A stretch of DNA of 64,000 nt from an uncultured Candidatus Bathyarchaeia archaeon (GTDB taxonomy: Archaea > Thermoproteota > Bathyarchaeia > 40CM-2-53-6 > DTDX01): positions 4,069 to 68,068 of the forward strand of contig CAZSNM010000005.1 in NCBI GenBank assembly GCA_964608455.1, read 5' to 3'. The notes below the pieces were generated by a model. That model ran no database searches, was not told the origin of the DNA, and was given only the letters and a program-made list of their open reading frames with translations. The translations under genes were made by a program, and so were the position numbers. This document shows positions 6,044 to 28,465 of the stretch, piece after piece (position 1 is the first letter of the stretch; each line of letters starts with the position of its first letter).

Positions 6044-6520
6044 TTGATAAAAATGTTTGTTATTAGAAGGTTTAATCCAAACGATTTGAATGCTGTAATC
6101 GAAATAAATAGAAGATGTCTTCCTGAAAATTATACAATTAATTTCTTTATGGATATTTATAGAAATTGTCCTGAAGCTTTTTTAGTGGCTGAAGCTGAAG
6201 ATAAAATTGTTGGATATATAATGTGCAGATTAGAATATGGCTTTTCAGATTTTAACAGATTTAAACTTGTTAAAAAGGGGCATATTGTTTCAATAGCTGT
6301 ACTTAATGAATATAGACGAAAAGGAATAGGTTCATCTTTAATTGCTCAAGCCTTAAAAGAGCTTGCTAATGCTCAAGCTAAAGAATGTTATTTAGAGGTT
6401 AGAATTACTAATGAAGCGGGAATAAACCTTTATAAAAAGTTTGGTTTTGTAATTACTCAAAGAATAGCTTATTATTATCATGATGGAGAAGATGCTTACG
6501 TAATGTCTAAAAAGCTTTAA
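6044..6520 (+). CDS. GNAT family N-acetyltransferase (RimI/Ard1-like)
   Basis: 158 aa with the acetyl-CoA binding motif RRKGIGSSLI. Confidence 0.75.
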   Translation: MIKMFVIRRFNPNDLNAVIEINRRCLPENYTINFFMDIYRNCPEAFLVAEAEDKIVGYIMCRLEYGFSDFNRFKLVKKGHIVSIAVLNEYRRKGIGSSLIAQALKELANAQAKECYLEVRITNEAGINLYKKFGFVITQRIAYYYHDGEDAYVMSKKL

Positions 6521-9261
6521 GTTTTAACTTCTGGATAACTCATAGACTTAAATTTTAAAGATTTAAGTTGAAGAGAAATCCTTTTTAATAATTCTTCTTC
6601 AGTGATGTTAAGGGAATGAAGCCAAGCTTCTAATTGTTTTTGAATAGAAACAACATTAATGTTTTTTTCCATTAAAATTTCCCATTCATCTTTAGAGTTT
6701 TCATAATTCCATTTTGGAAGTAAAAACTTGTTTATTTTCATTTTTTTGGCTTTTAAAGCTGCAAGAAATTTTCCTGCACCTCTCCATCCAACACCGCCTA
6801 CTGGACCGACATTCCCTTTAATATCTCCTTTTCCAGTCATAACTACTGTTGGTTCAACTTTTATTTGAGTAAGCTCTGAAATAGCTGCTACGCTAAAAGC
6901 AACTCCTAAGCTTGGACCGCTAACTCCTAAACCTGAAGCCCCCTCCAATGGGCTAACAACTTCAAATATAAAATCGAATTTGGAGATGTCTTCACCAATT
7001 TTTTCTCTAACATATTTTTTAATGTACTCAACTACGTTTGCAGCACTTTCAATTACGCTTGTATCTTCAATAGCTGTTGGACCAACAATTGTTGACTTTG
7101 AAGCGCCTGTTACAATAGTTTTTCCATCACCATTTGGATTTATTACACATTCAACTATAAGTATTATTCCTCTTCTACCAGTTGGATCAGTTCCAAGCCC
7201 ATAAGCCACACCAGTTTCTGGTTCCTCAAAAACAGCACTTTCCTGAACATCCATTAATTCCTTATCTATATCTTGTTCAAGTTGTTGTGCAGCTTTTTCA
7301 AAATGATAAAGTTTAATTTTATAGTTTTCTCCAGTTAAATCGATAGGATTTTTAATTAATTCTTCTTCTTTTAAATTTAATACTTCACAAAGCCTCTTTA
7401 TATCATCATAAAACATTTTTAAAACTTTGCGTTTATGATTTTCATCTCCTTTTTTAAGCTCCCAAGAAGCGATAATCTCTTGGGTTCTTAATCGATTAGC
7501 AGATCTTATTATTTCTGCAACAACCCTTGGAGAAACAATTCTATACTTTTTTATTATTCTTAATACGCCATCAATGGTAACTTCCGGATCTAAATGCTCT
7601 AAATAATGATTTAAATGAATTCTAATTATATCTCGTCTTTCAGCATCATTTCTTGGCAATGGTATTTCTATAATGTTTGGTTCAAAACGATTTAAAACAG
7701 CTTCATCAACAGCTTCAAGTCTATTTGTAGCAGCTATAACAATAACATTTTCGAGAGGTTGCAATCCATCAAGTTCAGTTAATATTTGAGCAGTTATTCT
7801 ATCGCCTACAGGATCTCCTTTACGCTTTCCAGCTATTATATCAAATTCATCAAAAAATATTATACTTGGAGCTGCTTTTCTAGCTATTGCAAATAAATCT
7901 CTTACATTTTTTTCAGGTTCACCAACCCATTTAGCATTAATAAGAAGTTGAGCTGCTGGAGCATAAAAGAATTCAGCACCATTTTCTCTAGCGATAGCTT
8001 TAGAAATATGAGTTTTACCACAGCCAGGTTCACCCCAAAGAATAAACCCCTTAGGAGGTATCCAACCAAGCTTATTTACAAGCTCGGGCTTTAAACTTAA
8101 TGAAATTGTTTTAAAAATTTTTTCCTTTATACCAAATAATCCTCCAACATCATCATAAGTTATTGAAGGTTTTATTTTAAGAACAGAACTTATAACTTCA
8201 ACGCTTTTTTCCTGTTCAACATATCCTCTAAGCTCTCTAGCTACAGCCTCAAAATCTTCTATTGAAACCCTATATTTAATCTCGCTTTTTTGAGTTAATC
8301 TTCTTTCTAGTCTTTCAAAAAGGCTTTTTCTAATTGGCGCTATTTTCTTTTCTCTAACCTTATTGCAAGCATCAATTATATCAAATGGGGTTAATTGTGT
8401 TTGCCTATAAATACTTACTCCTTTTTCTAAAGTTTTCATAACTTCCTCTGGATTTAAATAGTCCCATCCATGACTTTTAAGTTCTGAACTTAAAATAGCT
8501 AAAAGCATTTCCCTAGTTATGTTTTGATCCAAATCTATTGTAAACGCTCTTCTTCTTATATCTTCTCTAATAGATTCATACATGCTTGTAGCAGCTATTA
8601 AAATAGTTCTTGTTGATGTATCTAAAAGTCTTCTTAAATTATTTATGAAAATGCTTTGAACTCGTAAATCTTCCATTTCAGCTACTCTAGCCGCTTTAGC
8701 TGTATCAATTTTTTTACCAAAACTTTCAAATTCATCTATGAAAATTATGCTTGGCGTATTAAAGGCTTTATCAAAAATAGCCATTAAGTTTCTAGCTGAT
8801 TGACCATAGAGAGGATCAAAAACTTCAGGTCCTTTAACAAAAATTGGTTGAACATTTACACCATTTTTTATTCCATGCATAACTCCTTCTCTAATGCATA
8901 CTTCTGCAAGTAAAGATTTTCCGGTTCCGCTTGCACCTTTAAGAATAAAGAATTTTGGTGGTGGAGCATCCTTAAGTAATTCTTTTATATATTTATCTTG
9001 AACAACATGAAAGCTTATGCTGGACATTATAAGCTCATATTCTTTATCTCTTCCAACAAGTTTTTCTCTTTTTGAAGGATAATTTTTATCAAGCTCCTTC
9101 ATCAACTTTTGGAGTTTTCTTGGAGTTAACTTTGCATTTTTCCATCTTCGATACTCCTTAGTTGTAACATATAATGGGAAACTTAATAGCATACCAAGCT
9201 TAGGATAACGAATCCACCAAGGTTTAAATTCTTCATCATTCTTCTTCATCGATAAGCTCAT
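6517..9261 (-). CDS. tandem AAA+ ATPase fused to a Lon-type (S16) protease domain
   Basis: Two Walker A/B modules (GASGTGKS / IIFIDEFESF and GEPGCGKTH / IIFFDEFD). The C-terminal region has the Lon proteolytic signature (GVAYGLG ... GPSLGVAF ... VVMTGKGDIKGNVGPVGGV ... AGKFLAALKAKK) with the Ser-Lys dyad context. No TM helices seen. Confidence 0.7.
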   Translation of the reverse strand: MSLSMKKNDEEFKPWWIRYPKLGMLLSFPLYVTTKEYRRWKNAKLTPRKLQKLMKELDKNYPSKREKLVGRDKEYELIMSSISFHVVQDKYIKELLKDAPPPKFFILKGASGTGKSLLAEVCIREGVMHGIKNGVNVQPIFVKGPEVFDPLYGQSARNLMAIFDKAFNTPSIIFIDEFESFGKKIDTAKAARVAEMEDLRVQSIFINNLRRLLDTSTRTILIAATSMYESIREDIRRRAFTIDLDQNITREMLLAILSSELKSHGWDYLNPEEVMKTLEKGVSIYRQTQLTPFDIIDACNKVREKKIAPIRKSLFERLERRLTQKSEIKYRVSIEDFEAVARELRGYVEQEKSVEVISSVLKIKPSITYDDVGGLFGIKEKIFKTISLSLKPELVNKLGWIPPKGFILWGEPGCGKTHISKAIARENGAEFFYAPAAQLLINAKWVGEPEKNVRDLFAIARKAAPSIIFFDEFDIIAGKRKGDPVGDRITAQILTELDGLQPLENVIVIAATNRLEAVDEAVLNRFEPNIIEIPLPRNDAERRDIIRIHLNHYLEHLDPEVTIDGVLRIIKKYRIVSPRVVAEIIRSANRLRTQEIIASWELKKGDENHKRKVLKMFYDDIKRLCEVLNLKEEELIKNPIDLTGENYKIKLYHFEKAAQQLEQDIDKELMDVQESAVFEEPETGVAYGLGTDPTGRRGIILIVECVINPNGDGKTIVTGASKSTIVGPTAIEDTSVIESAANVVEYIKKYVREKIGEDISKFDFIFEVVSPLEGASGLGVSGPSLGVAFSVAAISELTQIKVEPTVVMTGKGDIKGNVGPVGGVGWRGAGKFLAALKAKKMKINKFLLPKWNYENSKDEWEILMEKNINVVSIQKQLEAWLHSLNITEEELLKRISLQLKSLKFKSMSYPEVKT

Positions 9262-9610
9262 ACCATTCCCTCTTTTTAGCTATTCCATAAACTATTCCAG
9301 TCAAAATAACAGGAAAAATAGGTAGGAGTAAAATGGATTTTGAAATATGGATAAACAGATTTTTTCCAGTTAAAAACTTGAAAGTAAAACTTCCAAAAGT
9401 TAAAATTAAAGCTTCAAGTTCAACAATTCCAAAAGCTATTAAAAAGGCATAAAATAAAACTCTTATAATCATCGCTATAGAATCCTTTTTAACCCATCTA
9501 TCTCTTTTCCTAACTTTCATATCTTTAATATTTAATATTCCAACTGAAATAAATAAAGTTAATATAACAGCATATGAAGCAAATACTATTAGGGGAAAAA
9601 AATTAACCAT
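9236..9610 (-). CDS. small integral membrane protein (3-4 TM)
   Basis: 124 aa hydrophobic ORF that overlaps the start of the AAA-Lon gene by 26 nt, so probably co-transcribed. Confidence 0.5.
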   Translation of the reverse strand: MVNFFPLIVFASYAVILTLFISVGILNIKDMKVRKRDRWVKKDSIAMIIRVLFYAFLIAFGIVELEALILTFGSFTFKFLTGKNLFIHISKSILLLPIFPVILTGIVYGIAKKREWYELIDEEE

Positions 9611-9682
9611 AAAAATGTTCCCTAGTAAATATTGTTTTTCATCCTCAAAAATATTTCGTTTTTCTTTGGTGATTAATTAAAA

Positions 9683-10810
9683 ATGCTTAGGCATAAAGAA
9701 TGTAAACTTTGCAGTAAAAAAAGCGAGTTAATCTCAAGCATTCTTAACCTTTGTATTAACTGCATTAAAGAAAAACCTGATGAAACTAAACAATTAATAT
9801 TAGAGGCTCATGAATCAATAAGAGCCTTTTATAATCTACCTCCAGTACCTCCTAAATCATTAGGAGGAATTCAATGCAATTTATGCGCTAATGAATGTAT
9901 AATTGGTGTTGGAGAAAAAGGATATTGCGGTTTAAGAAAAAACTTAAATGGAAAATTAATTTCTTTATCCAGCACTGATAAAGCAGTTTTACATTGGTAT
10001 CCTGACCCTCATGTTACAAATTGTTGTAGCGCTTGGTTTTGTCCAGCTGGGACAGGATCAGGGTACCCAAAATTTGCTTATACTAATGGGCCGGAGATAG
10101 GATATAAAAATTTAGCTATATTCTTTTATGGATGTAATTTTGATTGTTTATTTTGTCAAAATGCTTCCCATAAAGATATAGATGAGGCTTCAACAATTTC
10201 CTTAAATGAATTAACTAAGGTAATTAAAAATGATAAAAAATATTCTTGCATATGTTTTTTCGGCGGCTCACCTGAACCCCAACTCCCATTCGCTATATCA
10301 TTTTCAAAAAAGGTGCTTGAAGAAAATCCAAATAGAATAATTAGAATTTGTTTTGAATGGAATGGATGCGGAAACAAGCTTTTAGTTAAAGAAGCTGCAG
10401 AAATTGCTTTTAAAAGCGGTGGAAACATTAAATTTGATTTAAAATGTTTTAATGAAAATTTAAGTTTGGCTTTAAGCGGAGTTTCAAATAAAAAAGCTTA
10501 TGAAAATTTTGAGTTTATAGCTAATGAATTTTATAATGAAAGAAAAGATTTACCAGTTTTAACAGCTACAACGCTTTTAGTTTCAGGATATGTTGATGAG
10601 GAAGAAGTTAAGAAAATTTCAGAGTTTATTGCAAGTTTAAACCCTGAAATTCCATATTCACTTTTAGTTTTTCATCCAGACTTCATGATGAATGATCTTC
10701 CCATAACCCCAAAAAATCAAGCATTAAACTGTTATAAAATTGCTAAAAGATTTTTAAGAAATGTTTATTTAGGAAATATTCATTTGCTTAGCAATTTAAG
10801 AATTTATTAA
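9683..10810 (+). CDS. radical SAM enzyme, PflA/AmrS-like, with an N-terminal Cys4 extension
   Basis: CNFDCLFC (CxxxCxxC) radical SAM motif. Preceded by IQCNLCANECIIGVGEKGYCGLRKNLNGKL, which is typical of AmmeMemoRadiSam/PFL-activase-like enzymes. There is an extra N-terminal CKLC...CINC segment. Confidence 0.7.
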   Translation: MLRHKECKLCSKKSELISSILNLCINCIKEKPDETKQLILEAHESIRAFYNLPPVPPKSLGGIQCNLCANECIIGVGEKGYCGLRKNLNGKLISLSSTDKAVLHWYPDPHVTNCCSAWFCPAGTGSGYPKFAYTNGPEIGYKNLAIFFYGCNFDCLFCQNASHKDIDEASTISLNELTKVIKNDKKYSCICFFGGSPEPQLPFAISFSKKVLEENPNRIIRICFEWNGCGNKLLVKEAAEIAFKSGGNIKFDLKCFNENLSLALSGVSNKKAYENFEFIANEFYNERKDLPVLTATTLLVSGYVDEEEVKKISEFIASLNPEIPYSLLVFHPDFMMNDLPITPKNQALNCYKIAKRFLRNVYLGNIHLLSNLRIY

Positions 10811-10948
10811 ATTTCTATTGCATAGCTATTTATCATTTATTGTTATCTAGAAGAGAAAGCTTTAAATAGTTTTAAGAATAAAACATAATATTTGATTTTT
10901 CACTGTTAAATTTTAATTAAAATAAAATAGTAATGGAGCGCTTTAATA

Positions 10949-12382
10949 TTGGAGGAAAAAATTCAAACATTCAGGTTAATCTCAAATAATTTTTTCACAA
11001 GAAGCTTGTTAAAAAGTATTTCAAACTATTGCGAAAAAGATGGAAAAAATAGACTGGAAATAGGCTTAGAGCTTTATTCAGGAGTTAGAAAAGAAGCATG
11101 TTTAAAATGCAGGGTTACCGAAAAATTTTTAAATTTAATTTTAAAAATCGGTAGAAAAACATTTAACGTTTCAGAGGAGGAAATGAAAAAAACTTTTGCT
11201 GATGCTTATTGGAGAAGAGGGTTAAGCAGTGTAGTTAAAGGATTAGGTCTTTTCGGTGTTACAAAACCATTTACTCCAGGAGCACCATTTCAAGTTGTTT
11301 GGGAAATAACTAAAGCTTGTAATTTAAGATGTAAACATTGCTCAGCTAATGCTGGAGTTGGACTAGATGAATTAAATACAGAAGAAGCTTTAAAAGCAAT
11401 AGATAAACTTGATAAATTTGGTATAACGATTTTAGCCTTCTCCGGTGGAGAACCATTAATTCGAAAAGATTTTCCTAAACTTGCTAAATATGCAGCTGAT
11501 AAAGGAATATACGTAGCTGTAGCTACAAATGGTACATTAATAACTAAGGAAAAAGCGAAAGAAATGAAGGAAGCTGGAATAGAGTATGTGCAAATCAGCC
11601 TTGATGGAGCAGTTCCAGAAACCCATGATCACTTTAGGGGAGTACAAGGTGCATTTAATAAAACTATTGAAGGAATTAAAAATGTTGTAGCTGAAGATTT
11701 CTTTGTTAACGTTTCAACCACTGTAACTAAATTAAATTATAGGGAAATTCCAAAAATACTAGATTTATGCGAAAAGCTTGGTGTAGATTGGTTTATGGCA
11801 TATAATTTTATTCCAACTGGAAGGGGCATCGATATAGCAGAGTTAGATTTGACGCCGGAAGAAAGAGAAAATCTTTTAAAAATGCTTTATGAAAGAATGC
11901 AAAATTCAAATATAGCTATGCTTTCTACAGCTCCTCAACTTGCTAGAGTTTCTTTAGAAGCTTCCTGCCAAAGCGAAGCATTAGTTTTAAGCCACTTTTA
12001 CTCAGCTAAATCAAGGGAAAAAATTAAGAGTTTAGCTGAATTTATAGGTGGATGCGGTGCAGGAAGATTTTATATAGCTATAAAGCCTAATGGTGATATT
12101 CAACCATGCGTTTTTCTACCATTAAAACTTGGAAACATTAAAAGCGATAATCTGGAAGAATTATGGGTAACATCTAAAGTTTTAAAAGATCTTAGAAATA
12201 AAGATGCTTTAAAAGGACATTGTGGAATATGCGAATATAGATATTATTGTGGTGGATGTAGGGCAAGAGCTTATGGATACTTTAAAGACTATTTAGCACC
12301 TGACCCAGGTTGCATAAATAATAACGAGTATTATGCTATGTTGAAAAAAGAAGTTGAGTTAACTCCTGTTATTCAACGTTAA
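10949..12382 (+). CDS. radical SAM/SPASM domain protein
   Basis: CNLRCKHC radical SAM motif and a C-terminal Cys-rich SPASM-like region (GGCGAGRFYIAIKPNGDIQPCVF ... CGICEYRYYCGGC), plus a ~110-aa N-terminal extension. Confidence 0.7.
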   Translation: MEEKIQTFRLISNNFFTRSLLKSISNYCEKDGKNRLEIGLELYSGVRKEACLKCRVTEKFLNLILKIGRKTFNVSEEEMKKTFADAYWRRGLSSVVKGLGLFGVTKPFTPGAPFQVVWEITKACNLRCKHCSANAGVGLDELNTEEALKAIDKLDKFGITILAFSGGEPLIRKDFPKLAKYAADKGIYVAVATNGTLITKEKAKEMKEAGIEYVQISLDGAVPETHDHFRGVQGAFNKTIEGIKNVVAEDFFVNVSTTVTKLNYREIPKILDLCEKLGVDWFMAYNFIPTGRGIDIAELDLTPEERENLLKMLYERMQNSNIAMLSTAPQLARVSLEASCQSEALVLSHFYSAKSREKIKSLAEFIGGCGAGRFYIAIKPNGDIQPCVFLPLKLGNIKSDNLEELWVTSKVLKDLRNKDALKGHCGICEYRYYCGGCRARAYGYFKDYLAPDPGCINNNEYYAMLKKEVELTPVIQR

Positions 12383-12410
12383 GTTTTTTATTTATTTTTA
12401 AAAGATTTTT

Positions 12411-13982
12411 GTGGAGGGAAAATTATTGGTTGAGATCATACTTACTGCTGATAGAACGTTAATGAGTAATTATCATGGAAAAGAATTTCTTGGTTTTGCT
12501 ACTAGTGCTCCACCAAACATTTTGCCAACCTGGCTTTATAAATTTATGTTTTTCCCTCCAATAAAAAATAAAAATGGTATACCGATTGAGGCTCCTTATG
12601 CGCTTAGAAAAATTGAAGCAAAGCTTCTAGATGAAGGGTTTAACGTGCTTACAGTTGATCCGGATCATTTAAAAAAGTATATTAAAAACGCTAAAGTTCT
12701 ATGTGTTCATGTTATGGATCCCTTTGGTTTAGGACCTTCATCAACAACCTTTGCTAGAATTCTTCGTACAGGTGAGCCTTATCTATCAAAATATTTTAAA
12801 GAATTGCTTACAAAGAATGAGGTTAAAGAAGCTAAGAAGCGAGGTTTAAAGATAATTGTGGGTGGTCCTGGAGTTTGGCAATTTAAATATAGAGTTGAAG
12901 AACAAAAAGCTTATGGAATAGATTGTATAGTTTATGGAGAAGCAGAACGTATTATTAGTAATCTTATAAGAAAAGCTTTAAATGGGGAAGAGTTACCAAG
13001 CTATTTTGAAGTTAACCTTTATGAATTACCAAGTTTAAACGAGATTTCAGAAATTAAAAACCCTTCAATTAATGGTTTAATTGAAGTTGGTCGTGGATGC
13101 CCTAGAGGATGCGATTTTTGCAGCGTAACCCTAAAGCCTTTAAGATGGTACCCGCTTGATAAAATAGAAAAGGAACTTCAAGTAAATGTTAAAGGTGGGT
13201 TAACTTCAGGCATTCTTCATGCTGAAGATGTGCTTCTTTATGGTTCTAAATCTGTTATTCCTGATAGAGAAAAAGTTCTTGAATTACATAAATTAACTAA
13301 AAAATATTTAAAGAATTTTTGTTGGAGCCATGTTAGCATAGCAGCTATAGCAGCTGATCCAAAATTGTTTAAAGAAGTTTCAGAAATAATTATTGATGAA
13401 AATCAAAAATGGTGGGGTGCTCAAATAGGTATAGAAACAGGTTCACCTAGATTAGTTAAATTAACTATGCCAGCTAAAGCTAAGCCTTTTAAACCTGAAG
13501 AGTGGCCTTCTGTTGTAAAGGAAGCGGCAGGTTTAATGAATGATTATGGATTGATACCTGCTTGCACATTGATTACAGGTTTACCTGAAGAAACTGATGA
13601 AGATGTAATTAAAACCATAGAATTAATTGAAGATTTGGATTGGTTTAAAAGTATGATCGTTCCGTTATTTTTTGTTCCCATGGGTAAATTAAAGAATAAA
13701 GATTGGTTTAAATATGAAGATTTAACAGAGTTACAAAAAGAATTGATGGTTAAATGTCTCAGTCATGATATTAAATATGCAAGGGAAATTATGGATTGGT
13801 ATATTAAGGAGAAATGGTATAGCCCTATATTAAGAAGGCTTTATGATTTGTTTATTTGGTTAATAGAGCGTAAAGGGAAAAAAAGCAAAATTTTTGAATA
13901 TCAAAAAGTTTCAGTTTTTCATAAGGAAAGGGAGGAAATTAAAGAGGTTGAAGCTGTTAAAAGAGGCTACTACTATTGCTGA
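12411..13982 (+). CDS. radical SAM enzyme with an N-terminal B12-binding-like domain
   Basis: GCPRGCDFC CxxxCxxC motif preceded by a ~200-aa Rossmann-like N-terminal domain; 523 aa. Confidence 0.65.
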   Translation: MEGKLLVEIILTADRTLMSNYHGKEFLGFATSAPPNILPTWLYKFMFFPPIKNKNGIPIEAPYALRKIEAKLLDEGFNVLTVDPDHLKKYIKNAKVLCVHVMDPFGLGPSSTTFARILRTGEPYLSKYFKELLTKNEVKEAKKRGLKIIVGGPGVWQFKYRVEEQKAYGIDCIVYGEAERIISNLIRKALNGEELPSYFEVNLYELPSLNEISEIKNPSINGLIEVGRGCPRGCDFCSVTLKPLRWYPLDKIEKELQVNVKGGLTSGILHAEDVLLYGSKSVIPDREKVLELHKLTKKYLKNFCWSHVSIAAIAADPKLFKEVSEIIIDENQKWWGAQIGIETGSPRLVKLTMPAKAKPFKPEEWPSVVKEAAGLMNDYGLIPACTLITGLPEETDEDVIKTIELIEDLDWFKSMIVPLFFVPMGKLKNKDWFKYEDLTELQKELMVKCLSHDIKYAREIMDWYIKEKWYSPILRRLYDLFIWLIERKGKKSKIFEYQKVSVFHKEREEIKEVEAVKRGYYYC

Positions 13983-15184
13983 TTAATGATTTCTAAAATT
14001 AAATTTATAGTTGATTCTATTGCATTAAATGAATTTAAAATTTTAAAAAACTCATTTAATTTTTTTTCATTCTTAAAGTTAAGTAAGTTTTCTATTGCAT
14101 TTAATAATGTTTCCTTAGTAAGATTTTCCTGCACAATCATTTTCCCAATTTTTAAATGTTCAATTCGCTCAGCATTTCCATATTGTTCAGCTTGACCAGG
14201 AATTGGAATAGTTATAATTGGTTTTTTATAGGCTAAAGCCTTCATTATTATACCATGACCTGCACGTCCAATAATAACATCAGATGCTTTAAAAAGCTTA
14301 AATTGAGTTTCTTCATCAATCCATTCATATACTTTAACTTTTCCAATTTTCTTTAAGCAAAAATTTCCTTTAGGATTACCTTTAGAAATGATTATTTCAT
14401 ATTTTTCAGGGAAATCCTGAAAAATATCCATAAGCCTTTTTATTAAAAAGATTCTTTCTTTTTTTGGACCGCTAATCGCTGCATAAACAATTATTTTAGA
14501 GTCATTAAGGTTTAACTCTTTTTTAATAACTTTTTCTTCAGGAAGATCATTATATTTAATTGGAATTATAGGACCAATAAATTTTACTTTTTTCTTAAAA
14601 ATTTTTGGAATTATTAAGTTTTTAAATGAAATAGTGTATGGATAAGGTAAATCAGGGATTAAAATTTGATTACTTAAACCCCAAATTCCCTCTATAACAC
14701 TATTTGAAATACTCCATAAAAAATTCATAAAATTAAAAGATATTTTCTCGATTAAGGAATTTTTAAGGTTAGGATTTGCAATATTTATTTTGAATTGATT
14801 TAACATTAAAATGCTTGGTATCTTTAAGGCTTTAGCTATTAAAATTGGTGCCAATCTAGAATCTGAAAAAACTAAATTTGGATGATAACTTTTTATTCTT
14901 TTGAATTCAAAAATTAATTCTTTAAGGGAAAGTTTTATAGTTCGAAAAAAACCTGGATAATGTGCTAAAGATGCTTTATAATCAACCACTCCACTTTCGT
15001 TTGTAACATAGCTCATCTGTATCGTTTTAAAAACTTTATACCCCATTTTTATTAAGTACTCAACAGCTTCAAAACAAGTTGAAAAAACAACATTTACACC
15101 ATGATTTTTTAAGGCTCTAGCTATGGGTTCGCATCTAGTTACATGCCCTAACCCTATTCCGCAAGAGGCTATATAAACCTTCAA
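13973..15184 (-). CDS. GT1-family (MGT/UDP-glycosyltransferase-like) glycosyltransferase
   Basis: N-terminal GIGLGHVTRC and C-terminal GHGIIMKALAYKKPIITIPIPGQAEQYGNAERIE donor-binding motifs. Convergent with the radical SAM gene at 12411 and overlapping it by 10 nt. Confidence 0.7.
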   Translation of the reverse strand: MKVYIASCGIGLGHVTRCEPIARALKNHGVNVVFSTCFEAVEYLIKMGYKVFKTIQMSYVTNESGVVDYKASLAHYPGFFRTIKLSLKELIFEFKRIKSYHPNLVFSDSRLAPILIAKALKIPSILMLNQFKINIANPNLKNSLIEKISFNFMNFLWSISNSVIEGIWGLSNQILIPDLPYPYTISFKNLIIPKIFKKKVKFIGPIIPIKYNDLPEEKVIKKELNLNDSKIIVYAAISGPKKERIFLIKRLMDIFQDFPEKYEIIISKGNPKGNFCLKKIGKVKVYEWIDEETQFKLFKASDVIIGRAGHGIIMKALAYKKPIITIPIPGQAEQYGNAERIEHLKIGKMIVQENLTKETLLNAIENLLNFKNEKKLNEFFKILNSFNAIESTINLILEIINQQ

Positions 15185-15463
15185 AAAAAGTACCCCTCTT
15201 TTAAATTTGCAAATTTAAAATATATTCAACCTTTTCTTTTTTTAGAAAATAAAAAAGCTAAAAATAAAGCTAGTGTTGGAAAATAAAAAATGCAAATTTC
15301 AAATTCTAAAGCAAATATTTGAATGAAGAAAAGTTTTGAGATAAGTGAAATGAATGAAATAACAACCATAATTAAAAAAGAGAAGAAAATATTATTATTT
15401 TTCATAAAAATTCATGAGAAATCAAGTTAAAAAAAGAAAAACCTAAATAGGTTTTAATTTGAG

Positions 15464-15748
15464 TTAATCCTCTTCAGATTCTAAAAGAAGTTTCAAAGGA
15501 ATGTTCTGGCTTGTTCCATCTGGAAGCTGACGTCTAATGCTTATGGGTAAAATGCCTTCTTTCAATTCTAAAAGAGCTATTTCAATTGGAGATTTAACAC
15601 TTGGAGGTACATCTATTAATACAGGTGCTCCCATAGCTATTTGCATTGCTCGAGCCCCGACAATCCTAGTTTTTTCAAAGCGGGTAAGCTTTTTAGGACC
15701 GATCAGCGTAGTCTCTATAGAGTTAAGTTTCTCCGAGTTCTTCACCAC
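15464..15748 (-). CDS. rpoK: DNA-directed RNA polymerase subunit K (RpoK/Rpb6)
   Basis: [25 protein letters not shown] matches the RpoK/omega signature; 94 aa. Confidence 0.8.
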
Positions 15749-17402
15749 TCTCTTCTGGCCCCTTTGATGGCCCTTTTTCTTCTTTAGTTTTAGAAGCTGC
15801 TATTACATCATCTATTCTTAATATCATTGTTGCAGCTTCGCTTGCAGATTTAATAACTTGCATTTTAACAGCTAATGGTTCATAAACATCAAGTTTACTC
15901 ATATCAGCAACTTTACCCGAGAATACATCTACTCCAGCCCATTTTTCTCCTTTATCATGTTTAGCTCTTAACTCTGTAATTATATCTATTGGATCTAAAC
16001 CAGCATTTTCAGCTAAGGTCATTGGTATGCTCTCTAAAGCTTCAGCAAAAGCTAAAACAGCTAACTGTTCTTTTCCAGCTAGCTTCTCAGCATATTGCCT
16101 TAACCTTCTAGCGACTTCAGCTTCAGGTGCTCCACCGCCAGCTACTACTCTTGGGTCTCTAACAACATCTCTAACAACGCATAAGGCGTCATGAATGGCT
16201 CTTTCAGCTTCATTAACTATTCTTTCTGCACCTCCACGAACTAAAATAGTAACAGACTTAGGGTTTTTGCATCCTTCCACAAAAGTCATTTTATCATCTG
16301 CAACTTTTCTTTCTTCAACAAGTTTAGCAAAACCTAGATCATTTGGAGTTAAATCATCAAGGTTTGTTATTATCTTTCCTCCTGTAGCTTTAGCCAGTTT
16401 TTCCATATCAGATTCTTTAGCTCTTCTGACGGCTAAAATTCCTTTTTTAGCTAGGAAGTGTTGAGCCATATCATCGATTCCTTTTTGGCAAATAACAACG
16501 TCAGCTCCAGCTTTAGCAATTTTTTCAACCATTTCTTGAAGCATTCTTTCTTCTTCTTTAAGAAAAGCATCCATTTGCTCAGGTGTTTCTATGTTTATTT
16601 TAGCGTCCATTTCTGTTTTTTCTATTTCTAAAGGACAATTAAGCAAAGCTATTTTAGCGTTTTCTATTCTTTTAGGCATGCCTGGATGAACAACTTCCTT
16701 ATCAAGTACAACTCCTTTAACTAGCTTTGTATCCATTAGGGATTCTCCAGCTTTTTTTTCAACTTTCACATCGTCAATATCAACTTTATAACCTTCCAGA
16801 GTTTTTTCAGCCACCTGAAGAATAGCATCAACAGTTAAATCCGCTATATAATCTTTATATTCTGAAAGCAGTTTACTAGCTACAGCTACTTTAGCAACTT
16901 TCTTTAAAAATTCTTTATCACTTGGTTCCACTTTAATAGCTATTTCTTCAAGAGCTTTAAGAGCTTCTTCAGAAGCGGCTCTATAACCATCAACGATTAC
17001 AGTTGGATGAACATCTTTATCAATAAGCTCCTCAGCTTTAGTAAGGAGTTCTCCAGCTAATACTACGGCGGTTGTTGTTCCATCTCCTACTTCATCATCT
17101 TGTGTTTTAGCTACTTCAACCATCATTTTAGCTGCTGGATGTTGAACATCAATCTCATCAAGAATAGTAGCCCCATCATTAGTAATAGTAACATCACCAA
17201 AGCTGTCAACAAGCATTTTATCCATTCCCTTTGGTCCTAGGGAGCTTTTTACAGTTTCAGCGATAATTCTAGCAGCAGTAATATTTGCATGTTGAGCTTC
17301 TCTTCCTCTAGATCGGGTAGTACCTTCTTTTAATATCAAAATCGGAGTTCCAGCAAGTTCTGGAGTGGATTCGACTGCCATACCATAAAACCCCCTTTTC
17401 AA
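15723..17402 (-). CDS. ths: thermosome subunit (group II chaperonin)
   Basis: 559 aa with GPKGMDKML, the [12 protein letters not shown]-binding motif and a GDGTTT loop. Confidence 0.95.
16641..17228. repeat. 588-bp tract, identical apart from a single mismatch, to 61282-61869 in inverted orientation
   Basis: Direct nucleotide comparison of the reverse complement with the second thermosome gene: identical including synonymous sites, flanked by diverged sequence. Confidence 0.85.
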
Positions 17403-18215: not shown

Positions 18216-18674
18216 TTGAAAATAAGAATAACCCTTCATAGAAGTTATGGAGATATAGAAATTGAAGGTGAAACCTTCGAGGAGGTAATAGAAAATCTTA
18301 AAGGTTTCCCAGAATGGCTTGAAGTTATCGATAGCATGATAGCTGCAAGCTCCAGCGTAAGTGAAAAAGAAATTCTTAAAGGGATAATTCAAAATACGCC
18401 TGATGGTCCCTTAATAACTGTTTCTAGAGAAAAATTAACTGATAGAGAAGCTGTAGGGTTGCTTCTTTATGCTATGGAACCTAATGGATTAAAACCTAAA
18501 GAATTAAGTCGATTATTAAATTTAAGCGGTTTTCTTTCAGTAGGTTTTGCCAGCAGACTCAGCGAATTAAAGCGAGAAGGTCTAGCCTATAAAGAAGGTG
18601 AAGTATATAGATTAACTGTTTCTGGAAAAAAATGGATAGAAAAGTTAATTTCCTCATTTAAACCAGGAGGTTAA
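18216..18674 (+). CDS. wHTH protein, paralog 1 of 3 (unknown family)
   Basis: 152 aa with a C-terminal winged helix (SRLSELKREGLAYKEGEVYRLTVSG). Shares architecture with the two ORFs that follow. Confidence 0.55.
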   Translation: MKIRITLHRSYGDIEIEGETFEEVIENLKGFPEWLEVIDSMIAASSSVSEKEILKGIIQNTPDGPLITVSREKLTDREAVGLLLYAMEPNGLKPKELSRLLNLSGFLSVGFASRLSELKREGLAYKEGEVYRLTVSGKKWIEKLISSFKPGG

Positions 18675-18677
18675 TCT

Positions 18678-19175
18678 TTGAGCGAAGAAAAAAAGATAGA
18701 GGTTTATTTAAAGCATAAAGATTTCGAAAAGAAAATTGTAGGAGAAGTTGATGAAGTTTTAAGAGAGCTTATCTCATTTTTAACAGAAATTTATCCTAAA
18801 ATGGAGTTGGCTTCAAAACTCTCATTAACAGTTGATGCTAATGATTTAATAAATGCATGTCAAGGAATAATTGCTGTGACGCCAGAAGGAGTTGTAACAT
18901 TAGTTGATGTTGAAACATTACCAGATAAAGAATTAATTTTATTTCATTTAGTAAAAGCAAAAATCAGCAGGTTGCTTAATAAATCTGAAAAGGAAAGCCT
19001 GCTTATTAGCGATATCCTTTCCTCAACAAAACATAGTGTTGGAAGCGTTGCAGGTAGATTAAGCGAATTATGTTCTGAAGGTTTCGTGGAACGAGTAGGA
19101 AAGGGCGAGTATAGAATAACAACTTATGGTTTAGATTATTTTTTAAAAAATGTCGTTCCAAAATTGAAGGGGTGA
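18678..19175 (+). CDS. wHTH protein, paralog 2 of 3
   Basis: 165 aa with GRLSELCSEGFVERVGKGEYRITTYG. Its start lies 4 nt after the paralog-1 stop. Confidence 0.55.
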   Translation: MSEEKKIEVYLKHKDFEKKIVGEVDEVLRELISFLTEIYPKMELASKLSLTVDANDLINACQGIIAVTPEGVVTLVDVETLPDKELILFHLVKAKISRLLNKSEKESLLISDILSSTKHSVGSVAGRLSELCSEGFVERVGKGEYRITTYGLDYFLKNVVPKLKG

Positions 19176-19181
19176 AAAAAT

Positions 19182-19700
19182 ATGAGTGCTAATGAAGAAA
19201 AAAAAGTTAGAGTTCAAATAGAATATAATGGATTAAAACATAGTGTAGAGGGTTCAGTTGAAGAAGCAATAAAAGAAGTGGTAAATTTTCTTTCTAAGGT
19301 ATGTCCCACATACGATGTAGCTTCAAAAATTATTTATGCGCCAAATTATATAGAAATTTTAAATGATCTTTCAGAAATAGTTAATTTAACTCCAAATGGG
19401 GAACTAATACTTTTAAAGCAAATACCTTCAACAGATGAAGCTATAGGAGTGCTTCTTTTAGCTGTTGAAGTGGCTTATAAACTTGGAAAAAGAAAAACAA
19501 ACGCTTTAAGCGCCGAAGAGTTAACAAAAATTCTTGGCAAAGCTGAAAAAACCATTAGAAACACTATAGCTGAAATGATTAAAGCAGGGTTAATTGAAAG
19601 AATTGAAAAAGGAACATATCATATTACAATCGTTGGTGTAAAAGAAGTAAGTGAATTTATAAAAATGCTTAAAGAAACTTCGGAAGATAAACAAAAATGA
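19182..19700 (+). CDS. wHTH protein, paralog 3 of 3
   Basis: 172 aa with NTIAEMIKAGLIERIEKGTYHITIVG. Its stop overlaps the next start (ATGA). Confidence 0.55.
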   Translation: MSANEEKKVRVQIEYNGLKHSVEGSVEEAIKEVVNFLSKVCPTYDVASKIIYAPNYIEILNDLSEIVNLTPNGELILLKQIPSTDEAIGVLLLAVEVAYKLGKRKTNALSAEELTKILGKAEKTIRNTIAEMIKAGLIERIEKGTYHITIVGVKEVSEFIKMLKETSEDKQK

Positions 19701-20818
19701 CATTTAATTTAAAGGAGGGAAAAAGAATTAAAACAAACGATATATACGCGTCGTTTAGAAATTCAATAATAAATGAAGTTTTTTTAAATGAAAAAACTCA
19801 ACTGTTAAAAGAAGAGTTAATTCCAAATTTCCTAATTAAATTAAGCGATTTTTCAATGAAAACAATGAGAGATTCCAGTTCCAATTTTATTCAAGCTTCT
19901 CCAGAATTGGAATTTGATGATGAACCTCAATTATGTTTAAATATTAAAGAGGAGTTAAGCGAACCAATTCCCATTTATCCAAATTATAAGGATTCAACAA
20001 TAATTGCTATTGATGTCTCAAGTATAAAAATTGGAGAGACAAATGATGGTGTTATATGTGCCATTAGAGGAGCTGTTGTTTGGAGAAAACAAGGAGAAGT
20101 AAACTTTTTCAGATGCGGACCATTAATTTTTCATATAACCGATTTTATTATTGAACAATTATATGGTAATGTAGGAGTTAAAGCTTTAGAGTTTCCTATA
20201 GGGATAGTTTCAAGACTTAGGAATTTACTTGAAAGATTTATTCAAGGAAATGTATGCACCCACTTTAAAGATTCAATAATTCTTTTTGATGGAAGTTTAA
20301 CAGCTGGCACTCCTGATAATCCAACTAACAGTTTAACTCAAATCCTTTCTAAAGCTAAAGAAAATGGAAATATTGTTTTAGCAATTTCAAAAACTACTAA
20401 AATAGGTTTATCAGGAGTTAAATTGTCAGAGCTTCTAAAAAACTTTAAGGGACCGTGTCTTTTAGATATAGATGAAAGTATAAGATCGCTTTTTCCAAAT
20501 CATCCAGTTCAACTTCTTGGGAAAGTTTATGCAACTAAACTTTCAGCTAAAGGTTTATCTTTTAGACTTGATGTAGATAGAAAAGTAGATCTTAAAGAAA
20601 CAATAGATTCTTTAGGAAAATTAATAGTAAATGATATTATAGATTACGGGTATCCAGATACTTTAAGGCTTGCTCATATATTTTCATCCTTTACAGCAAG
20701 TGATGTTATAGGTATACAAAGATTCCTTTCAAAGAAATTTAAGATACAAATAGTTCCAAAAATTAATTTAAGAAGAATTCTCTTCGGTCCATTTGGAAAT
20801 CCAATGGAGGTTTCCTAA
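19697..20818 (+). CDS. NurA-like nuclease domain protein
   Basis: 373 aa with an N-terminal IIAIDVSS motif resembling the NurA DGS catalytic motif. Translationally coupled on both sides. Confidence 0.45.
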   Translation: MTFNLKEGKRIKTNDIYASFRNSIINEVFLNEKTQLLKEELIPNFLIKLSDFSMKTMRDSSSNFIQASPELEFDDEPQLCLNIKEELSEPIPIYPNYKDSTIIAIDVSSIKIGETNDGVICAIRGAVVWRKQGEVNFFRCGPLIFHITDFIIEQLYGNVGVKALEFPIGIVSRLRNLLERFIQGNVCTHFKDSIILFDGSLTAGTPDNPTNSLTQILSKAKENGNIVLAISKTTKIGLSGVKLSELLKNFKGPCLLDIDESIRSLFPNHPVQLLGKVYATKLSAKGLSFRLDVDRKVDLKETIDSLGKLIVNDIIDYGYPDTLRLAHIFSSFTASDVIGIQRFLSKKFKIQIVPKINLRRILFGPFGNPMEVS

Positions 20819-22257
20819 TGAAAATTTATAAAAAGGAAGGTGATGTAATTCAAATAATAAGTTTTCCAAATGAAATTGTGGAGAAAGGAGATTATCTTTT
20901 AATTGAAGACCCAATTGTAGATAAAGGTCTTTTAGTTCAAGTTATAGATATTCAATTCGCAAATGTTCCAGGAGTATTTGAAGATATTTTAAGAGATGCC
21001 GTGTTAGAGGAAGGAATTGAAGGAGAAAATTATGATCCAATGGAGGTTTCCTCTCAAATATCAATATTAAAAGATACAAAACTTTTAGTATGTAGAATAA
21101 GAGGGGTTTTAAGTAATGGAGAAATAGTTTTTGGAATGAATTATTTACCTTCAAGAACTTTATCTAGAATAATTCCATATAAAATTGAGAATTTTATTAA
21201 TTCAACAAGTAGAAGCAGACCTTTTCAAGTTGGAAAAATTAGGGGAGAAGCAGAATTAATTTTAGATGTTAAAGCTTTAGATGGAAAATTAAATATTGTA
21301 ACAGGAAGGAAGGGTACAGGAAAATCTCATTTAGCTAAGCTATTAATTTTAAACTTAGTTAAATATGGTGCTCCATGCATAATCTTCGATATAAACGGTG
21401 AATACATAAATTTAAATAAGAAAAAAACGGGGGAAACTTTAAAATTTGGTAAGTTTATAACGTTAACCCCAAAAATTAATATGAAATTTACTTTATCTCA
21501 AGCTAAGCTTACTCCAGTATTAAATATGATGATTTATTCATTAGATTTGCCAAGCACTTCAGCTAGAGTTTTTATCAAGATTTGGAGAGAATTAGAAAGG
21601 AGAGGAGAATTAAATTTAACTTCTTTAGGTGAAGCCATATTAAAATGGGATTGCCATGAAAGCGTTAGAGATGCATTATATGCTAGATATAATATGATTA
21701 TTGAATCTGGGTTATTTACAGATAATATTAATGAATCTTTAGATTTTGAATTTTTAATGAAAAGCATATCAAATGGTGGAGTTGTTGTAATTAATTTAAA
21801 GAATCAACCAGCTATGATTAGAAAAATGATTGTTGAATTAACGCTTAATAAGCTTACGGAGCTTTTATCAAACTGGAAGCTTCAAGCAATATTTTTATTT
21901 GCTGAGGAAGCTCATCTTTATTTAAGAGAAACCTATTGGGATGATATAGTAACTAGAATGAGACATCTTGGAATATTTACAACTTTTATAACTAATCAAC
22001 CTGATACAATTCAAGAGACAATTTATCGACAAGCCGATAACATTTTCCTATTTAACTTTTCAAATGAGCATGATTTAGAGGTTGTTTCTAAAGCAGCTAA
22101 AATAGATTCTGAAACAATTAAAAAAATAGTTAAGGAGCTCCCACCACATTATTGTTTAATAATAGGAGATGTAGTAAATAATTTTCCAGTGGTAGTGAAA
22201 GTTGAACCGCTTGAATTTGAAACGATGGGGGAAACAAGATTCTTCTTTAAAAACTGA
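20818..22257 (+). CDS. HerA-like (DUF87) HAS-barrel P-loop ATPase
   Basis: N-terminal HAS-barrel-like beta region, Walker A GRKGTGKSHLAK immediately followed by IIFDINGEY (HerA/VirB4-type), and Walker B IFLFAEEAHLYL. Confidence 0.65.
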   Translation: MKIYKKEGDVIQIISFPNEIVEKGDYLLIEDPIVDKGLLVQVIDIQFANVPGVFEDILRDAVLEEGIEGENYDPMEVSSQISILKDTKLLVCRIRGVLSNGEIVFGMNYLPSRTLSRIIPYKIENFINSTSRSRPFQVGKIRGEAELILDVKALDGKLNIVTGRKGTGKSHLAKLLILNLVKYGAPCIIFDINGEYINLNKKKTGETLKFGKFITLTPKINMKFTLSQAKLTPVLNMMIYSLDLPSTSARVFIKIWRELERRGELNLTSLGEAILKWDCHESVRDALYARYNMIIESGLFTDNINESLDFEFLMKSISNGGVVVINLKNQPAMIRKMIVELTLNKLTELLSNWKLQAIFLFAEEAHLYLRETYWDDIVTRMRHLGIFTTFITNQPDTIQETIYRQADNIFLFNFSNEHDLEVVSKAAKIDSETIKKIVKELPPHYCLIIGDVVNNFPVVVKVEPLEFETMGETRFFFKN

Positions 22258-24447: not shown

Positions 24448-25851
24448 TTAAGCTTTAACCCATTTTTCCTGTAGAAATTTAGAGATTCCAGAGGAATCCA
24501 TAGGTCCAACAAGAACTTTCCATCCTGTAAGCTCTTCTATTTCTCCACTAAGTCTAGAAGCTCTTCCAGGAATAATTATAGTTTTATGCTTAACTTTATT
24601 TTCAATTCCACTTCCCTTAATGCTTTCAGCAACTTTTTCAGCTGTAAGCTTTCTTCCAGCAACAGCACTTTCAACAGAAAGCCCTTCAGTGTCGACCACA
24701 AGCAAATAACAATCGATTTTGCTAGCTTCAATATCTGAAGCGACTGTATAATATGTTAAAGCAAAATTTGTTGTTAAAAGAATTGGAGATTCTTCAGTTG
24801 GGTTTCCGAAAACTTTAATGCCAGTTTCTACAGCTACAGGTTTTCTAGGATCAGTATATAGATTTTGCCTAAGGATTGTTAATGGAAGTAAAACCCAACC
24901 ATCAAGGCTATGCATTATTAAAACATCAGCATATCTAGTTATTAGCATTGATGCAAGGCAAGCTTCTTTCCATGCTGTTACCTCTGGAAATTCACTAGGT
25001 TCTATCCAAACTATTGCTGGAACACCAATTAATGGAAAACCCAAAAGTTCATCTTCTTCTTTGCATGCAGCTCTTCTTAACATCGTGAAATTATTTAATG
25101 TATCTGCAAGTCCGTTCCAAAATGTTCCAGGATCTAAAACTAGATCTTCAACTCCATAGGCTAATAATGTTTTTGTTAAAGATTTTAAAGTTCTTAAATC
25201 ATTTGGTGAAAAAACAGTTAATGGACATTTATACATTAATGAAAGTTCAGCCATTTCTTTCCAATTCTCTTTTGTAGCACCATAAATCAATGGTTTTTTA
25301 CTGGAAACCTCTATTAATCCGGCCTCCATAACATTTGGATCTAAAGAACATAAAATTAATGGAAGATTTGTAATTGAAGAAACCTTTTTAACAGTTGCCT
25401 TAAATGTATCTGGATCATTTAAAACAGATCTAATAGCAATTAAATCAAGCTTCAAATTTTGTCCAATATATGTATATGAAAAACTTTCAGCTTCCTTCAC
25501 TCTTTTAACTATTTCTTCTTCAGGCATATCATCTGAAACATCTATGGCAATAGCTGTTGGATTATGATATGTTAATTCATGCCTATACATAACTAGTTTA
25601 CCACCAATTTTAACAATGTTGCTTCCAGAACCTATAGTAACTTCCTTTACTGGAGGCTTAAGCATTTCCCATAAAGCTTTATATTCGTTTTTATATTTTT
25701 CAGTTAAAATAGGTGGGCATTTATCTAATGTAACTTCTCTATTAACAAGTTTAGCAGCAAAAGCCATGCAGTTTTCTTCTCCACATTCCTTACAATTAGT
25801 TTTAGGCAAATATTTATAAACTTCTGTTGGGCTTAAAGTTTTTTTAGGCAT
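24448..25851 (-). CDS. cdhE: ACDS gamma subunit (corrinoid Fe-S protein large subunit, CdhE/AcsC)
   Basis: N-terminal 4Fe-4S motif CKECGEENCMAF...DKCP; 467 aa; last gene of the cdh operon. Confidence 0.8.
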   Translation of the reverse strand: MPKKTLSPTEVYKYLPKTNCKECGEENCMAFAAKLVNREVTLDKCPPILTEKYKNEYKALWEMLKPPVKEVTIGSGSNIVKIGGKLVMYRHELTYHNPTAIAIDVSDDMPEEEIVKRVKEAESFSYTYIGQNLKLDLIAIRSVLNDPDTFKATVKKVSSITNLPLILCSLDPNVMEAGLIEVSSKKPLIYGATKENWKEMAELSLMYKCPLTVFSPNDLRTLKSLTKTLLAYGVEDLVLDPGTFWNGLADTLNNFTMLRRAACKEEDELLGFPLIGVPAIVWIEPSEFPEVTAWKEACLASMLITRYADVLIMHSLDGWVLLPLTILRQNLYTDPRKPVAVETGIKVFGNPTEESPILLTTNFALTYYTVASDIEASKIDCYLLVVDTEGLSVESAVAGRKLTAEKVAESIKGSGIENKVKHKTIIIPGRASRLSGEIEELTGWKVLVGPMDSSGISKFLQEKWVKA

Positions 25852-25858
25852 TTTATTA

Positions 25859-27064
25859 TCACCTTTTTAAGCTTGTAATCCAATTATAAATTTTTTCAGT
25901 CTCTTCTTTAACAGTTAATTTTTTAATTACTTCCTTAACGGTTTTAACAGCAGCAGGATGCATCATCATAAAATAGTCTACCCCAGCCAAAAGCAAAGTT
26001 AAGGCTGAAACAGTTTCCCAAATTGGTCCCCTAAGCTCCTTGGGACCCCATTTTGACTCCATAGTCATCCAAGCTTCTCTAGCAGCCCAAGCATTTGTTG
26101 TTCCTGAAGAAATTGGATGTTGAAGTTCAGCATCACCCATTAATGCGGCTAATCTAGTTCTTTCCATAACTGTAAAAGCATAATCTAAACCATAACCTAA
26201 AGCAGCTGTTGTTGTATCAATTACAATCTTATTTTTAGGTAAAAATTCATATAATTTACGATTTAATTCCCTAGCATCATCCATATTCATAGCTGTAAAA
26301 GCTATAACACAATGATTGTGTTTTTTAATGGCTTCCGCAACTTTTTTGATATCCATGTTTAAAGTTACTGAATTAAATAAAATGTTTTCTCCTTCAGCAA
26401 CTTCAGCAACTTTCTCGAAAACTTTTAAATCTTTTTCCGGATCACCACAACCACCAACAGTTAAAGGAACATCAACTGCTTGAAGAACGTCCTCAACTGT
26501 TTTAGCTGCTTCTGAAGGTTTAGTATCCTTAAGAAGGGGATCTATGCTTACTAAATGAAGGTTTATTACTTCAGCACCCCACTTTTCCACAGCTTTTTTA
26601 GCCCATGCTACAGGATCCTCAAGAACATCTTCCACATGCATTTTTACAGCTTTAGCTAAAGGAATCTTCATATCAAAAACATCTATGGAGATTACTGGAG
26701 GGTTTGGCGGTGGCGATTCAAAAAGATAAAATGCTGGTGCTTTTTCACCTCCTATAGTTACTGTTTTACCTCTTGAGCCTCCCTCGCTTTTAGTTGCACC
26801 AATTTTAACCTCAACTATTTCTCCAGGATATTTCATTATTGGTGGATGAAACTCCTCCTCTAAAATCTCTTTTGGTTTAACTTTTGGAGGAGCCTCAATT
26901 TTAGGTAATGGAATCCGGCTTATAAAAGGTTGAAGTAAAAACTCTAATTCTTTAACTTTTATCTCAACATTTTCAAGCTCTATTTCTTGAAATTCACTTA
27001 AAAGCTTAATTATGTCAAATCCAAAATCACTAAAATCTTCTTTTTCCTTATTCTTTTTGCTCAT
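25859..27064 (-). CDS. cdhD: ACDS delta subunit (corrinoid Fe-S protein small subunit, CdhD/AcsD)
   Basis: 401 aa TIM-barrel-like ORF between cdhC and cdhE; stop/start overlap with cdhC. Confidence 0.7.
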   Translation of the reverse strand: MSKKNKEKEDFSDFGFDIIKLLSEFQEIELENVEIKVKELEFLLQPFISRIPLPKIEAPPKVKPKEILEEEFHPPIMKYPGEIVEVKIGATKSEGGSRGKTVTIGGEKAPAFYLFESPPPNPPVISIDVFDMKIPLAKAVKMHVEDVLEDPVAWAKKAVEKWGAEVINLHLVSIDPLLKDTKPSEAAKTVEDVLQAVDVPLTVGGCGDPEKDLKVFEKVAEVAEGENILFNSVTLNMDIKKVAEAIKKHNHCVIAFTAMNMDDARELNRKLYEFLPKNKIVIDTTTAALGYGLDYAFTVMERTRLAALMGDAELQHPISSGTTNAWAAREAWMTMESKWGPKELRGPIWETVSALTLLLAGVDYFMMMHPAAVKTVKEVIKKLTVKEETEKIYNWITSLKR

Positions 27065-28461: not shown

Positions 28462-28465
28462 AATT

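Follow-up and report, generated by a model that had tools for sequence, protein, structure and literature searches.

We analyzed a 64-kb stretch of DNA (64,000 nucleotides, here called the window) from an uncultured Candidatus Bathyarchaeia archaeon, in which three consecutive genes for radical S-adenosylmethionine (SAM) proteins, rSAM-1 to rSAM-3, are followed by a convergent glycosyltransferase (GT) gene. The window is AT-rich, with a GC content of approximately 30%, and the closest homologues of its proteins are found in metagenome-assembled genomes (MAGs) of Candidatus Bathyarchaeia, many of them from hot-spring assemblies. The organism is taken to be an anaerobic and probably thermophilic Bathyarchaeion. 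The four open reading frames (ORFs) had been described in an earlier note on this DNA, and all of them are present where it placed them:

9683–10810, forward strand: rSAM-1, 375 amino acids (aa), a pyruvate formate-lyase (PFL)-activase-like radical SAM protein
10949–12382, forward strand: rSAM-2 (gms), 477 aa, a homologue of the synthase of glycerol monoalkyl glycerol tetraethers (GMGTs; also H-shaped glycerol dialkyl glycerol tetraethers, H-GDGTs)
12411–13982, forward strand: rSAM-3 (grs), 523 aa when read from the GTG at 12411, a GrsA-like radical SAM protein of the B12-binding type
13973–15184, reverse strand: the GT, 403 aa, a GT-B protein that is GT28-C/MJ1255-like and convergent with grs

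The 3' ends of grs and the GT gene overlap by 10 nucleotides (13973–13982). All three radical SAM proteins match PF04055 above the Pfam cutoff, and the CX3CX2C motif is invariant within the family alignment of each, while none of the four proteins reaches an NCBIfam equivalog cutoff. The gene order, motifs and overlap noted earlier are confirmed, as is the description of three distinct architectures: a cysteine-rich N-terminus in rSAM-1, a SPASM domain with an N-terminal extension of about 115 aa in rSAM-2, and a class-B/MiaB-type fold in rSAM-3. Lipid tailoring had also been proposed as a function of the cluster. This proposal is supported for rSAM-2 as Gms and for rSAM-3 as Grs, and it is not supported for rSAM-1 and the GT. 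We consider it likely, with a probability of roughly 85%, that 10949–13982 constitutes a gms-grs pair for the tailoring of archaeal tetraether membrane lipids. The evidence for the pair consists of homology, domain architecture and recurrent adjacency, from which we infer the enzyme activities, ring positions and products in this organism.

Judged by its sequence, rSAM-2 is a homologue of Gms. The protein consists of an N-terminal domain of about 115 aa, a radical SAM core (PF04055, 107.7 bits) and a SPASM domain (PF13186, 38.1 bits). In an alignment of 15 sequences the radical SAM cysteines (C124-x3-C128-x2-C131) and the SPASM cysteines (C369, C387, C425, C428, C434, C437 and C455) are invariant. 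Residues 1–115 are also conserved in the family, with invariant cysteines at positions 28, 51 and 54. The best curated models are AhbD, TIGR04053 and NirJ2 (280 bits). The AhbD hidden Markov model (HMM; TIGR04545) scores 310.4 bits (E = 1.7e-92) against a cutoff of 500, and because it aligns only from residue 116 the preceding residues are recognized as an extension; the AhbD, NirJ and TIGR04053 models all begin to align at residues 112–116. Gms has been defined as an AhbD-like radical SAM/SPASM enzyme with an N-terminal extension of about 100 aa, which forms a hydrophobic lipid-binding domain and which AhbD lacks (PMC11214058; PMC11186832).

Homologues of rSAM-2 with equal length and approximately 60% identity occur in Bathyarchaeia, Thermoplasmata, Archaeoglobi, Methanomassiliicoccales and Methanomethylicia. 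This agrees with the published distribution of Gms, whose carriers are obligate anaerobes with Bathyarchaeota as the largest group (PMC11214058; PMC11186832). One relative, MBS7658551.1, is 88% identical to rSAM-2 and likewise 477 aa long. In the Source Data of Li et al. 2024 it appears in the sheet 'Archaeal domain-Gms-homologs', where its identity to the query, the M. okinawensis Gms (AEH06837.1) that was characterized in vitro, is given as 52.38% (E = 1e-130). The family members MBS7645768.1, HID43622.1 and MBO8180320.1 appear in the same sheet. Through MBS7658551.1 as a proxy, rSAM-2 lies within the published similarity thresholds for Gms (E<1e-50, >30% identity and >420 aa; or E<1e-80 and at least 400 aa).

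By sequence similarity, rSAM-3 is homologous to the GDGT ring synthases and is GrsA-like. In a BLASTP comparison it is 50% identical over 397 aa (E = 7e-138) to Sulfolobus acidocaldarius GrsA (WP_011278400.1), the genetically characterized Saci_1585, with an alignment that covers all but two of the 399 GrsA residues available. Against the nine GrsA sequences listed in the FASTA sheet of the Source Data of Li et al. 2024, from which our references were taken, the identity is 44–51%; these nine are themselves 54–82% identical to the Sulfolobus protein. The published similarity limits for Grs (for a BLASTP match to the S. acidocaldarius GrsA protein, E of at most 1e-40, at least 20% identity, at least 70% coverage and at least 400 aa) are far exceeded, and the earlier suggestion of a Grs enzyme in the cluster proves right for rSAM-3.

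The rSAM-3 family is extremely conserved, with approximately 150 invariant columns, and the motif C230-x3-C234-x2-C237 is invariant. The B12-binding domain PF02310 gives a weak match (E = 1e-3) below its cutoff. An AlphaFold model (predicted template-modeling score 0.82) contains beta-alpha repeats at residues 60–200, a barrel at 220–420, helices at 440–517 and a C-terminal tail of about 25 aa with low confidence, and the top Foldseek matches of the model are the class-B/MiaB-type enzymes MgmA, MiaB and TsrM. The fold is predicted to be a Rossmann-like (B12-binding-type) N-terminal domain, a partial TIM barrel with the CX3CX2C motif, and C-terminal helices, in agreement with the published description of Grs. 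Like GrsA, rSAM-3 starts directly with the conserved 'ILTADRTLMSNYHGKEF' block and has no GrsB-type N-terminal coiled-coil domain. From the 50% identity to GrsA and the lack of a GrsB-type N-terminal extension, we infer that the protein is of the GrsA rather than the GrsB type. Its true start is probably the TTG at 12426, which gives a protein of 518 aa, rather than the GTG at 12411, because a GGAGG sequence lies 8 nucleotides upstream of the TTG and the database protein P0001, which is 99% identical to rSAM-3, is 518 aa long.

We compared gene neighborhoods in three samples: 80 grs loci, obtained by scanning Grs relatives in one genome per species and taking 10-kb flanks; 80 metagenome loci anchored on rSAM-1; and an unbiased sample of three gms loci. 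Individual loci are denoted by L numbers. A gms-family gene directly adjoins grs in 17 of the 80 grs loci, which come from several phyla (at one of the 17 gms is cut off at the contig end). The order seen in the window, gms followed by grs, occurs in eight of the 80, with gms 59–62% identical; seven of these are labelled Thermoplasmata or Thermoplasmatota and one is from an unclassified archaeon. At eight Bathyarchaeia or Baldrarchaeota grs loci the adjacent gms is 41–49% identical and stands in either order. Considering both this adjacency and the published gms-grs-gmm gene cluster of T. guaymasensis (Garcia et al. 2024, PMC11214058), the gms-grs pair is a recurrent and already known kind of association.

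Several observations weigh against the reading of the locus as a lipid-tailoring pair. The pair is not obligatory, since gms is absent from 63 of the 80 grs loci and grs from all three unbiased gms loci. The comparison of rSAM-2 with characterized Gms runs through its 88%-identical proxy rather than the window protein itself, the GrsA/GrsB subtype of rSAM-3 was judged from a comparison with GrsA sequences, and the Gms and Grs activities in this organism, and in Bathyarchaeia generally, are predicted from homology. In addition, neither Tes nor any further lipid-tailoring gene was found in the window, where the only lipid-related gene elsewhere is an HMG-CoA-synthase-like ORF 24 kb away.

Additional features were seen near grs and gms in other genomes. 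A 135-aa TrmB-type helix-turn-helix regulator gene is conserved before gms-grs pairs in the window order (L014, L015, L036, L046, L053, L058 and L083). The grs gene of Bathyarchaeia usually lies divergent to an operon for a 2-oxoacid:ferredoxin oxidoreductase of four subunits (POR_N, POR, TPP_enzyme_C and a 2x[4Fe-4S] delta subunit), an arrangement present in 32–39 of the 80 grs loci (L016–L082), and a PadR regulator often lies between the two. Two separate grs loci were found in single MAGs in four cases (L011/L028, L009/L074, L041/L042 and L075/L083), a sign that Bathyarchaeia and Thermoplasmatales may have Grs paralogues. On two unrelated contigs, which represent two of the three unbiased gms loci, a gene for a CarS-like CDP-archaeol synthase (L174, 3601–4086; L175, 4972–5451) is located approximately 2 kb upstream of gms, and this proximity fits a lipid role of gms. 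In Geoglobus (L001), gms (63% identical) overlaps a gene (9388–10749, forward strand) for another B12-binding radical SAM protein of 453 aa, which is 21% identical to Grs/rSAM-3 and may be gmm, and this locus is also flanked by a 273-aa radical SAM gene (7054–7875, reverse strand) that is unrelated to rSAM-1. We considered L001 as an orthologous arrangement of three radical SAM genes and rejected it, as both neighbors of gms belong to other families.

A pathway for the pair can be drawn by analogy with the characterized homologues. Tes, encoded elsewhere in the genome, would join two archaeols to form GDGT. The GrsA-like enzyme would use 5'-deoxyadenosyl radicals, probably with cobalamin, to introduce cyclopentane rings into the biphytanyl chains, and Gms, by means of its radical SAM cluster and an auxiliary one, would couple two sp3 carbons of opposing biphytanyl chains. 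The action of both enzymes would yield ring-bearing GMGTs. As a radical SAM/SPASM enzyme, Gms carries three [4Fe-4S] clusters, and its N-terminal domain is lipid-binding; ring-bearing GMGTs have been seen in A. profundus and in V. distributa, each of which carries gms and grs. By analogy, we predict that the window organism, given Tes, makes ring-containing GDGTs and GMGTs.

The gene preceding the pair, rSAM-1, encodes a PFL-activase-like radical SAM enzyme that is probably not part of the lipid pair. Its motif (C151-x3-C155-x2-C158) is invariant in the family alignment and follows a cysteine-rich N-terminal extension of about 140 aa, which holds a Zn-ribbon-like CxxC...CxxC and a CxxCxxxC...C arrangement. 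Homologues are approximately 60% identical across TACK archaea. The match to the AmmeMemoRadiSam model (TIGR04337) is restricted to residues 149–367 and scores 68.7 bits against a cutoff of 220. Assignment as a glycyl-radical activase (PflA, TIGR02493), which requires a score at or above the cutoff of 231.75 bits and a cognate enzyme nearby, does not apply to rSAM-1, and neither a glycyl-radical enzyme nor an AMMECR1 or Memo partner was identified near the gene. A literature search on rSAM-1-like proteins (AmmeMemoRadiSam/PflX) returned nothing relevant.

The GT contains Glyco_tran_28_C (PF04101) and Glyco_trans_1_3 (PF13528) domains, both above the Pfam cutoffs. It scores 99.5 bits with the MJ1255/VC2487 model (TIGR00661), the cutoff of which is 195.9. 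The intergenic region between the GT and RpoK holds a very hydrophobic ORF of 59 aa (15226–15405, reverse strand) that is not called in relatives and is probably spurious.

Among the alternative readings, rSAM-2 could be a heme or heme-d1 enzyme (AhbD, AhbC or NirJ) in a cluster for tetrapyrrole cofactor maturation. AhbD (310 bits) and NirJ2 are its top NCBIfam matches. However, these scores fall far below the equivalog cutoffs of 500–650, the N-terminal extension of about 115 aa is foreign to AhbD, other Ahb or Nir genes were not found among the annotated ORFs of the window, and the Gms family is set apart from AhbC and AhbD in the published sequence similarity network and trees (PMC11186832), leaving a heme function very unlikely. 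Even less probable is a tetraether synthase (Tes/GDGT-MAS), which had been suggested in the earlier note. Such an enzyme is similar in size and combines a radical SAM domain with auxiliary clusters, and rSAM-2 has a weak Protein Data Bank (PDB) match to 7tol. This match to GDGT-MAS (MJ0619; 55 bits, E = 6e-14) is confined to residues 119–291 in the radical SAM core and is weaker than those to SkfB and PqqE, whereas a close homologue of rSAM-2 is 52% identical to Gms, and it is Gms that replaces the Tes suggestion. The SPASM maturases SkfB and PqqE are the best matches among solved structures and have N-terminal extensions of similar length, as might be expected if the cluster matured a ribosomally synthesized and post-translationally modified peptide (RiPP) or a peptide-derived cofactor, with the N-terminal domain of rSAM-2 as the peptide-recognition element. 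A search for an adjacent precursor had been recommended, and it revealed no small ORF in the intergenic gaps. Moreover, approximately 60% identity across archaeal phyla is atypical of RiPP maturases, and the assignment to Gms is directly supported; we regard peptide maturation as extremely improbable. Comparison with the AhbD/NirJ, PqqE and anSME models had likewise been recommended and gave no score at a family cutoff. Membership in the AhbD, NirJ, PqqE, anSME and mycofactocin families was rejected, as all matches lie below the curated cutoffs. With no precursor ORF, no Ahb or Nir genes and every equivalog cutoff missed, the earlier alternative of cofactor or peptide maturation is not sustained.

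A different question is whether the gms-grs pair extends to all four genes as one functional module, with rSAM-1 as an additional lipid-modifying or Gms-supporting enzyme and the GT glycosylating the tetraether core. rSAM-1 and gms are same-strand neighbors in several contexts and in both orders. rSAM-1 precedes gms in the window, L088, L169 and L170; the order is reversed, with differing flanks, in L085/L086, L087, L097 and L099; and in L171/L172 a protease gene is inserted between the two. By our rough estimate, chance alone would place a third radical SAM gene beside the pair in only a few percent of cases. The commonest neighbor of rSAM-1 elsewhere is a divergent gene for the polyprenyl-diphosphatase BacA/UppP (8 of 80 loci, e.g. 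L109, 1607–2419); no neighbor is present in more than eight, and clustering of the neighborhoods gave no functional lead beyond BacA. A different GT (GT4) adjoins grs in L004, L022, L027 and L035. However, gms adjoins rSAM-1 in only 2 of the 80 loci anchored on the latter, and rSAM-1 is found within 10 kb of none of the 80 grs genes, at none of the three unbiased gms loci, and at none of the eight loci that share the gms-grs order of the window. Its core also resembles a protein activase (PFL-AE). The GT is equally absent within 10 kb of grs in the 80 loci. Clear GT homologues near grs or gms occur only in L088, L169 and L170, which are close relatives with fully conserved synteny: the eight-gene neighborhood of AAA-Lon, transmembrane protein, rSAM-1, gms, grs, GT, RpoK and thermosome is intact in each. 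The idea of a single functional cluster, which the earlier note had put forward, is disfavored by these counts, and we consider it unlikely. It is most likely that rSAM-1 and the GT lie beside gms-grs through lineage-specific gene order and are not obligate partners. Similarly, the placement of rSAM-1 beside gms in a few Bathyarchaeia lineages is most likely a lineage-restricted gene order, and a real functional link between these two genes is doubtful. Because same-strand adjacency recurs in both orders with differing flanks, there is nonetheless a small chance that rSAM-1 is an undescribed tetraether-lipid-modifying enzyme or a Gms accessory in some Bathyarchaeia, with the adjacent GT adding a sugar headgroup. 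If so, the locus would be a four-gene lipid-tailoring island.

Upstream of rSAM-1, the AAA-Lon gene (6517–9261, reverse strand) encodes a protein of 914 aa in which two AAA+ domains are fused to a C-terminal Lon protease domain, with an nSTAND3 match. It is followed by a gene for a membrane protein of 124 aa that matches no family (9236–9610, reverse strand), and the two are kept together in L088, L169 and L170. On the other side of the locus, an ORF at 15723–17402 (reverse strand, 559 aa) and another at 61135–62778 (forward strand, 547 aa) are, judging from their sequences, thermosome (group II chaperonin)-like paralogues; the L169 gene at the position of the former carries Cpn60_TCP1. The region 18216–22257 (forward strand) includes three tandem paralogous small ORFs of 152, 165 and 172 aa directly upstream of NurA (19697–20818) and HerA (20818–22257). 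The one small paralogue that was scanned, 18678–19175, has no Pfam match. An apparent CODH/ACS (acetyl-CoA decarbonylase/synthase) block occupies approximately 24448–33363 (reverse strand), where the ORF at 31450–33363 contains CdhC and ACS_CODH_B_C domains; a CxxxCxxC ORF (27061–28461) and other subunits of this block were recognized by eye only. A scan for sigma-70 promoters and terminators gave 22 sites where 29.7 were expected, and the sigma-70 model is uninformative for an archaeal host.

Palaeo-environmental work uses GMGTs and ring-bearing GDGTs as biomarkers. The Bathyarchaeia, most of which are uncultured, are abundant in sediments and hot springs, and their lipids are largely unknown. 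The presence of adjacent gms and grs genes in a Bathyarchaeia genome predicts that these archaea are a source of cyclized GMGTs. The window adds an example of this rather than a new concept, as approximately 190 Bathyarchaeota Gms homologues, including the 88%-identical relative of rSAM-2, have already been counted in published surveys.

Each of the three radical SAM proteins can be compared with characterized relatives. rSAM-1 differs from PFL activase and AmmeMemoRadiSam in missing every family cutoff and in possessing an extra Zn-ribbon-like Cys4 segment. For rSAM-2, the characterized Gms enzymes are those of M. okinawensis (METOK_RS04425/AEH06837.1), T. guaymasensis (WP_062369926.1) and P. 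furiosus (PF0647). Like Gms (466 aa), rSAM-2 is in the same length class and comprises four parts, an N-terminal helical domain, a radical SAM core, a bridging region and a SPASM domain. By numbering, the cysteines mutated in the M. okinawensis enzyme by Li et al. (C123, C127, C370 and C438) lie close to the invariant C124, C128, C369 and C437 of rSAM-2. The equivalent of C372 appears, from residue numbering only, to be Ala371 in 14 of 15 members of the rSAM-2 family, and if this match is true one auxiliary cluster of rSAM-2 may have an open coordination site. Unlike the characterized enzymes, rSAM-2 comes from Bathyarchaeia. AhbD (M. barkeri Mbar_A1458) is the closest curated HMM for the radical SAM/SPASM core, but it lacks the N-terminal domain present in rSAM-2 and differs in substrate class.

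rSAM-3 shares the CX3CX2C context of S. acidocaldarius GrsA. In contrast to crenarchaeal GrsA, it belongs to a separate and highly conserved subclade of Bathyarchaeia and Thermoplasmata, with 55–72% identity inside the subclade and 42–51% to the crenarchaeal proteins. The T. guaymasensis cluster includes gmm, encoding a MoeK5-like B12 methylase, which has no counterpart at the window locus; here the pair instead lies between the gene for the PFL-activase-like rSAM-1 and that for the GT-B glycosyltransferase. In both, gms and grs are co-located, such that the predicted cross-linking and cyclization genes are clustered.

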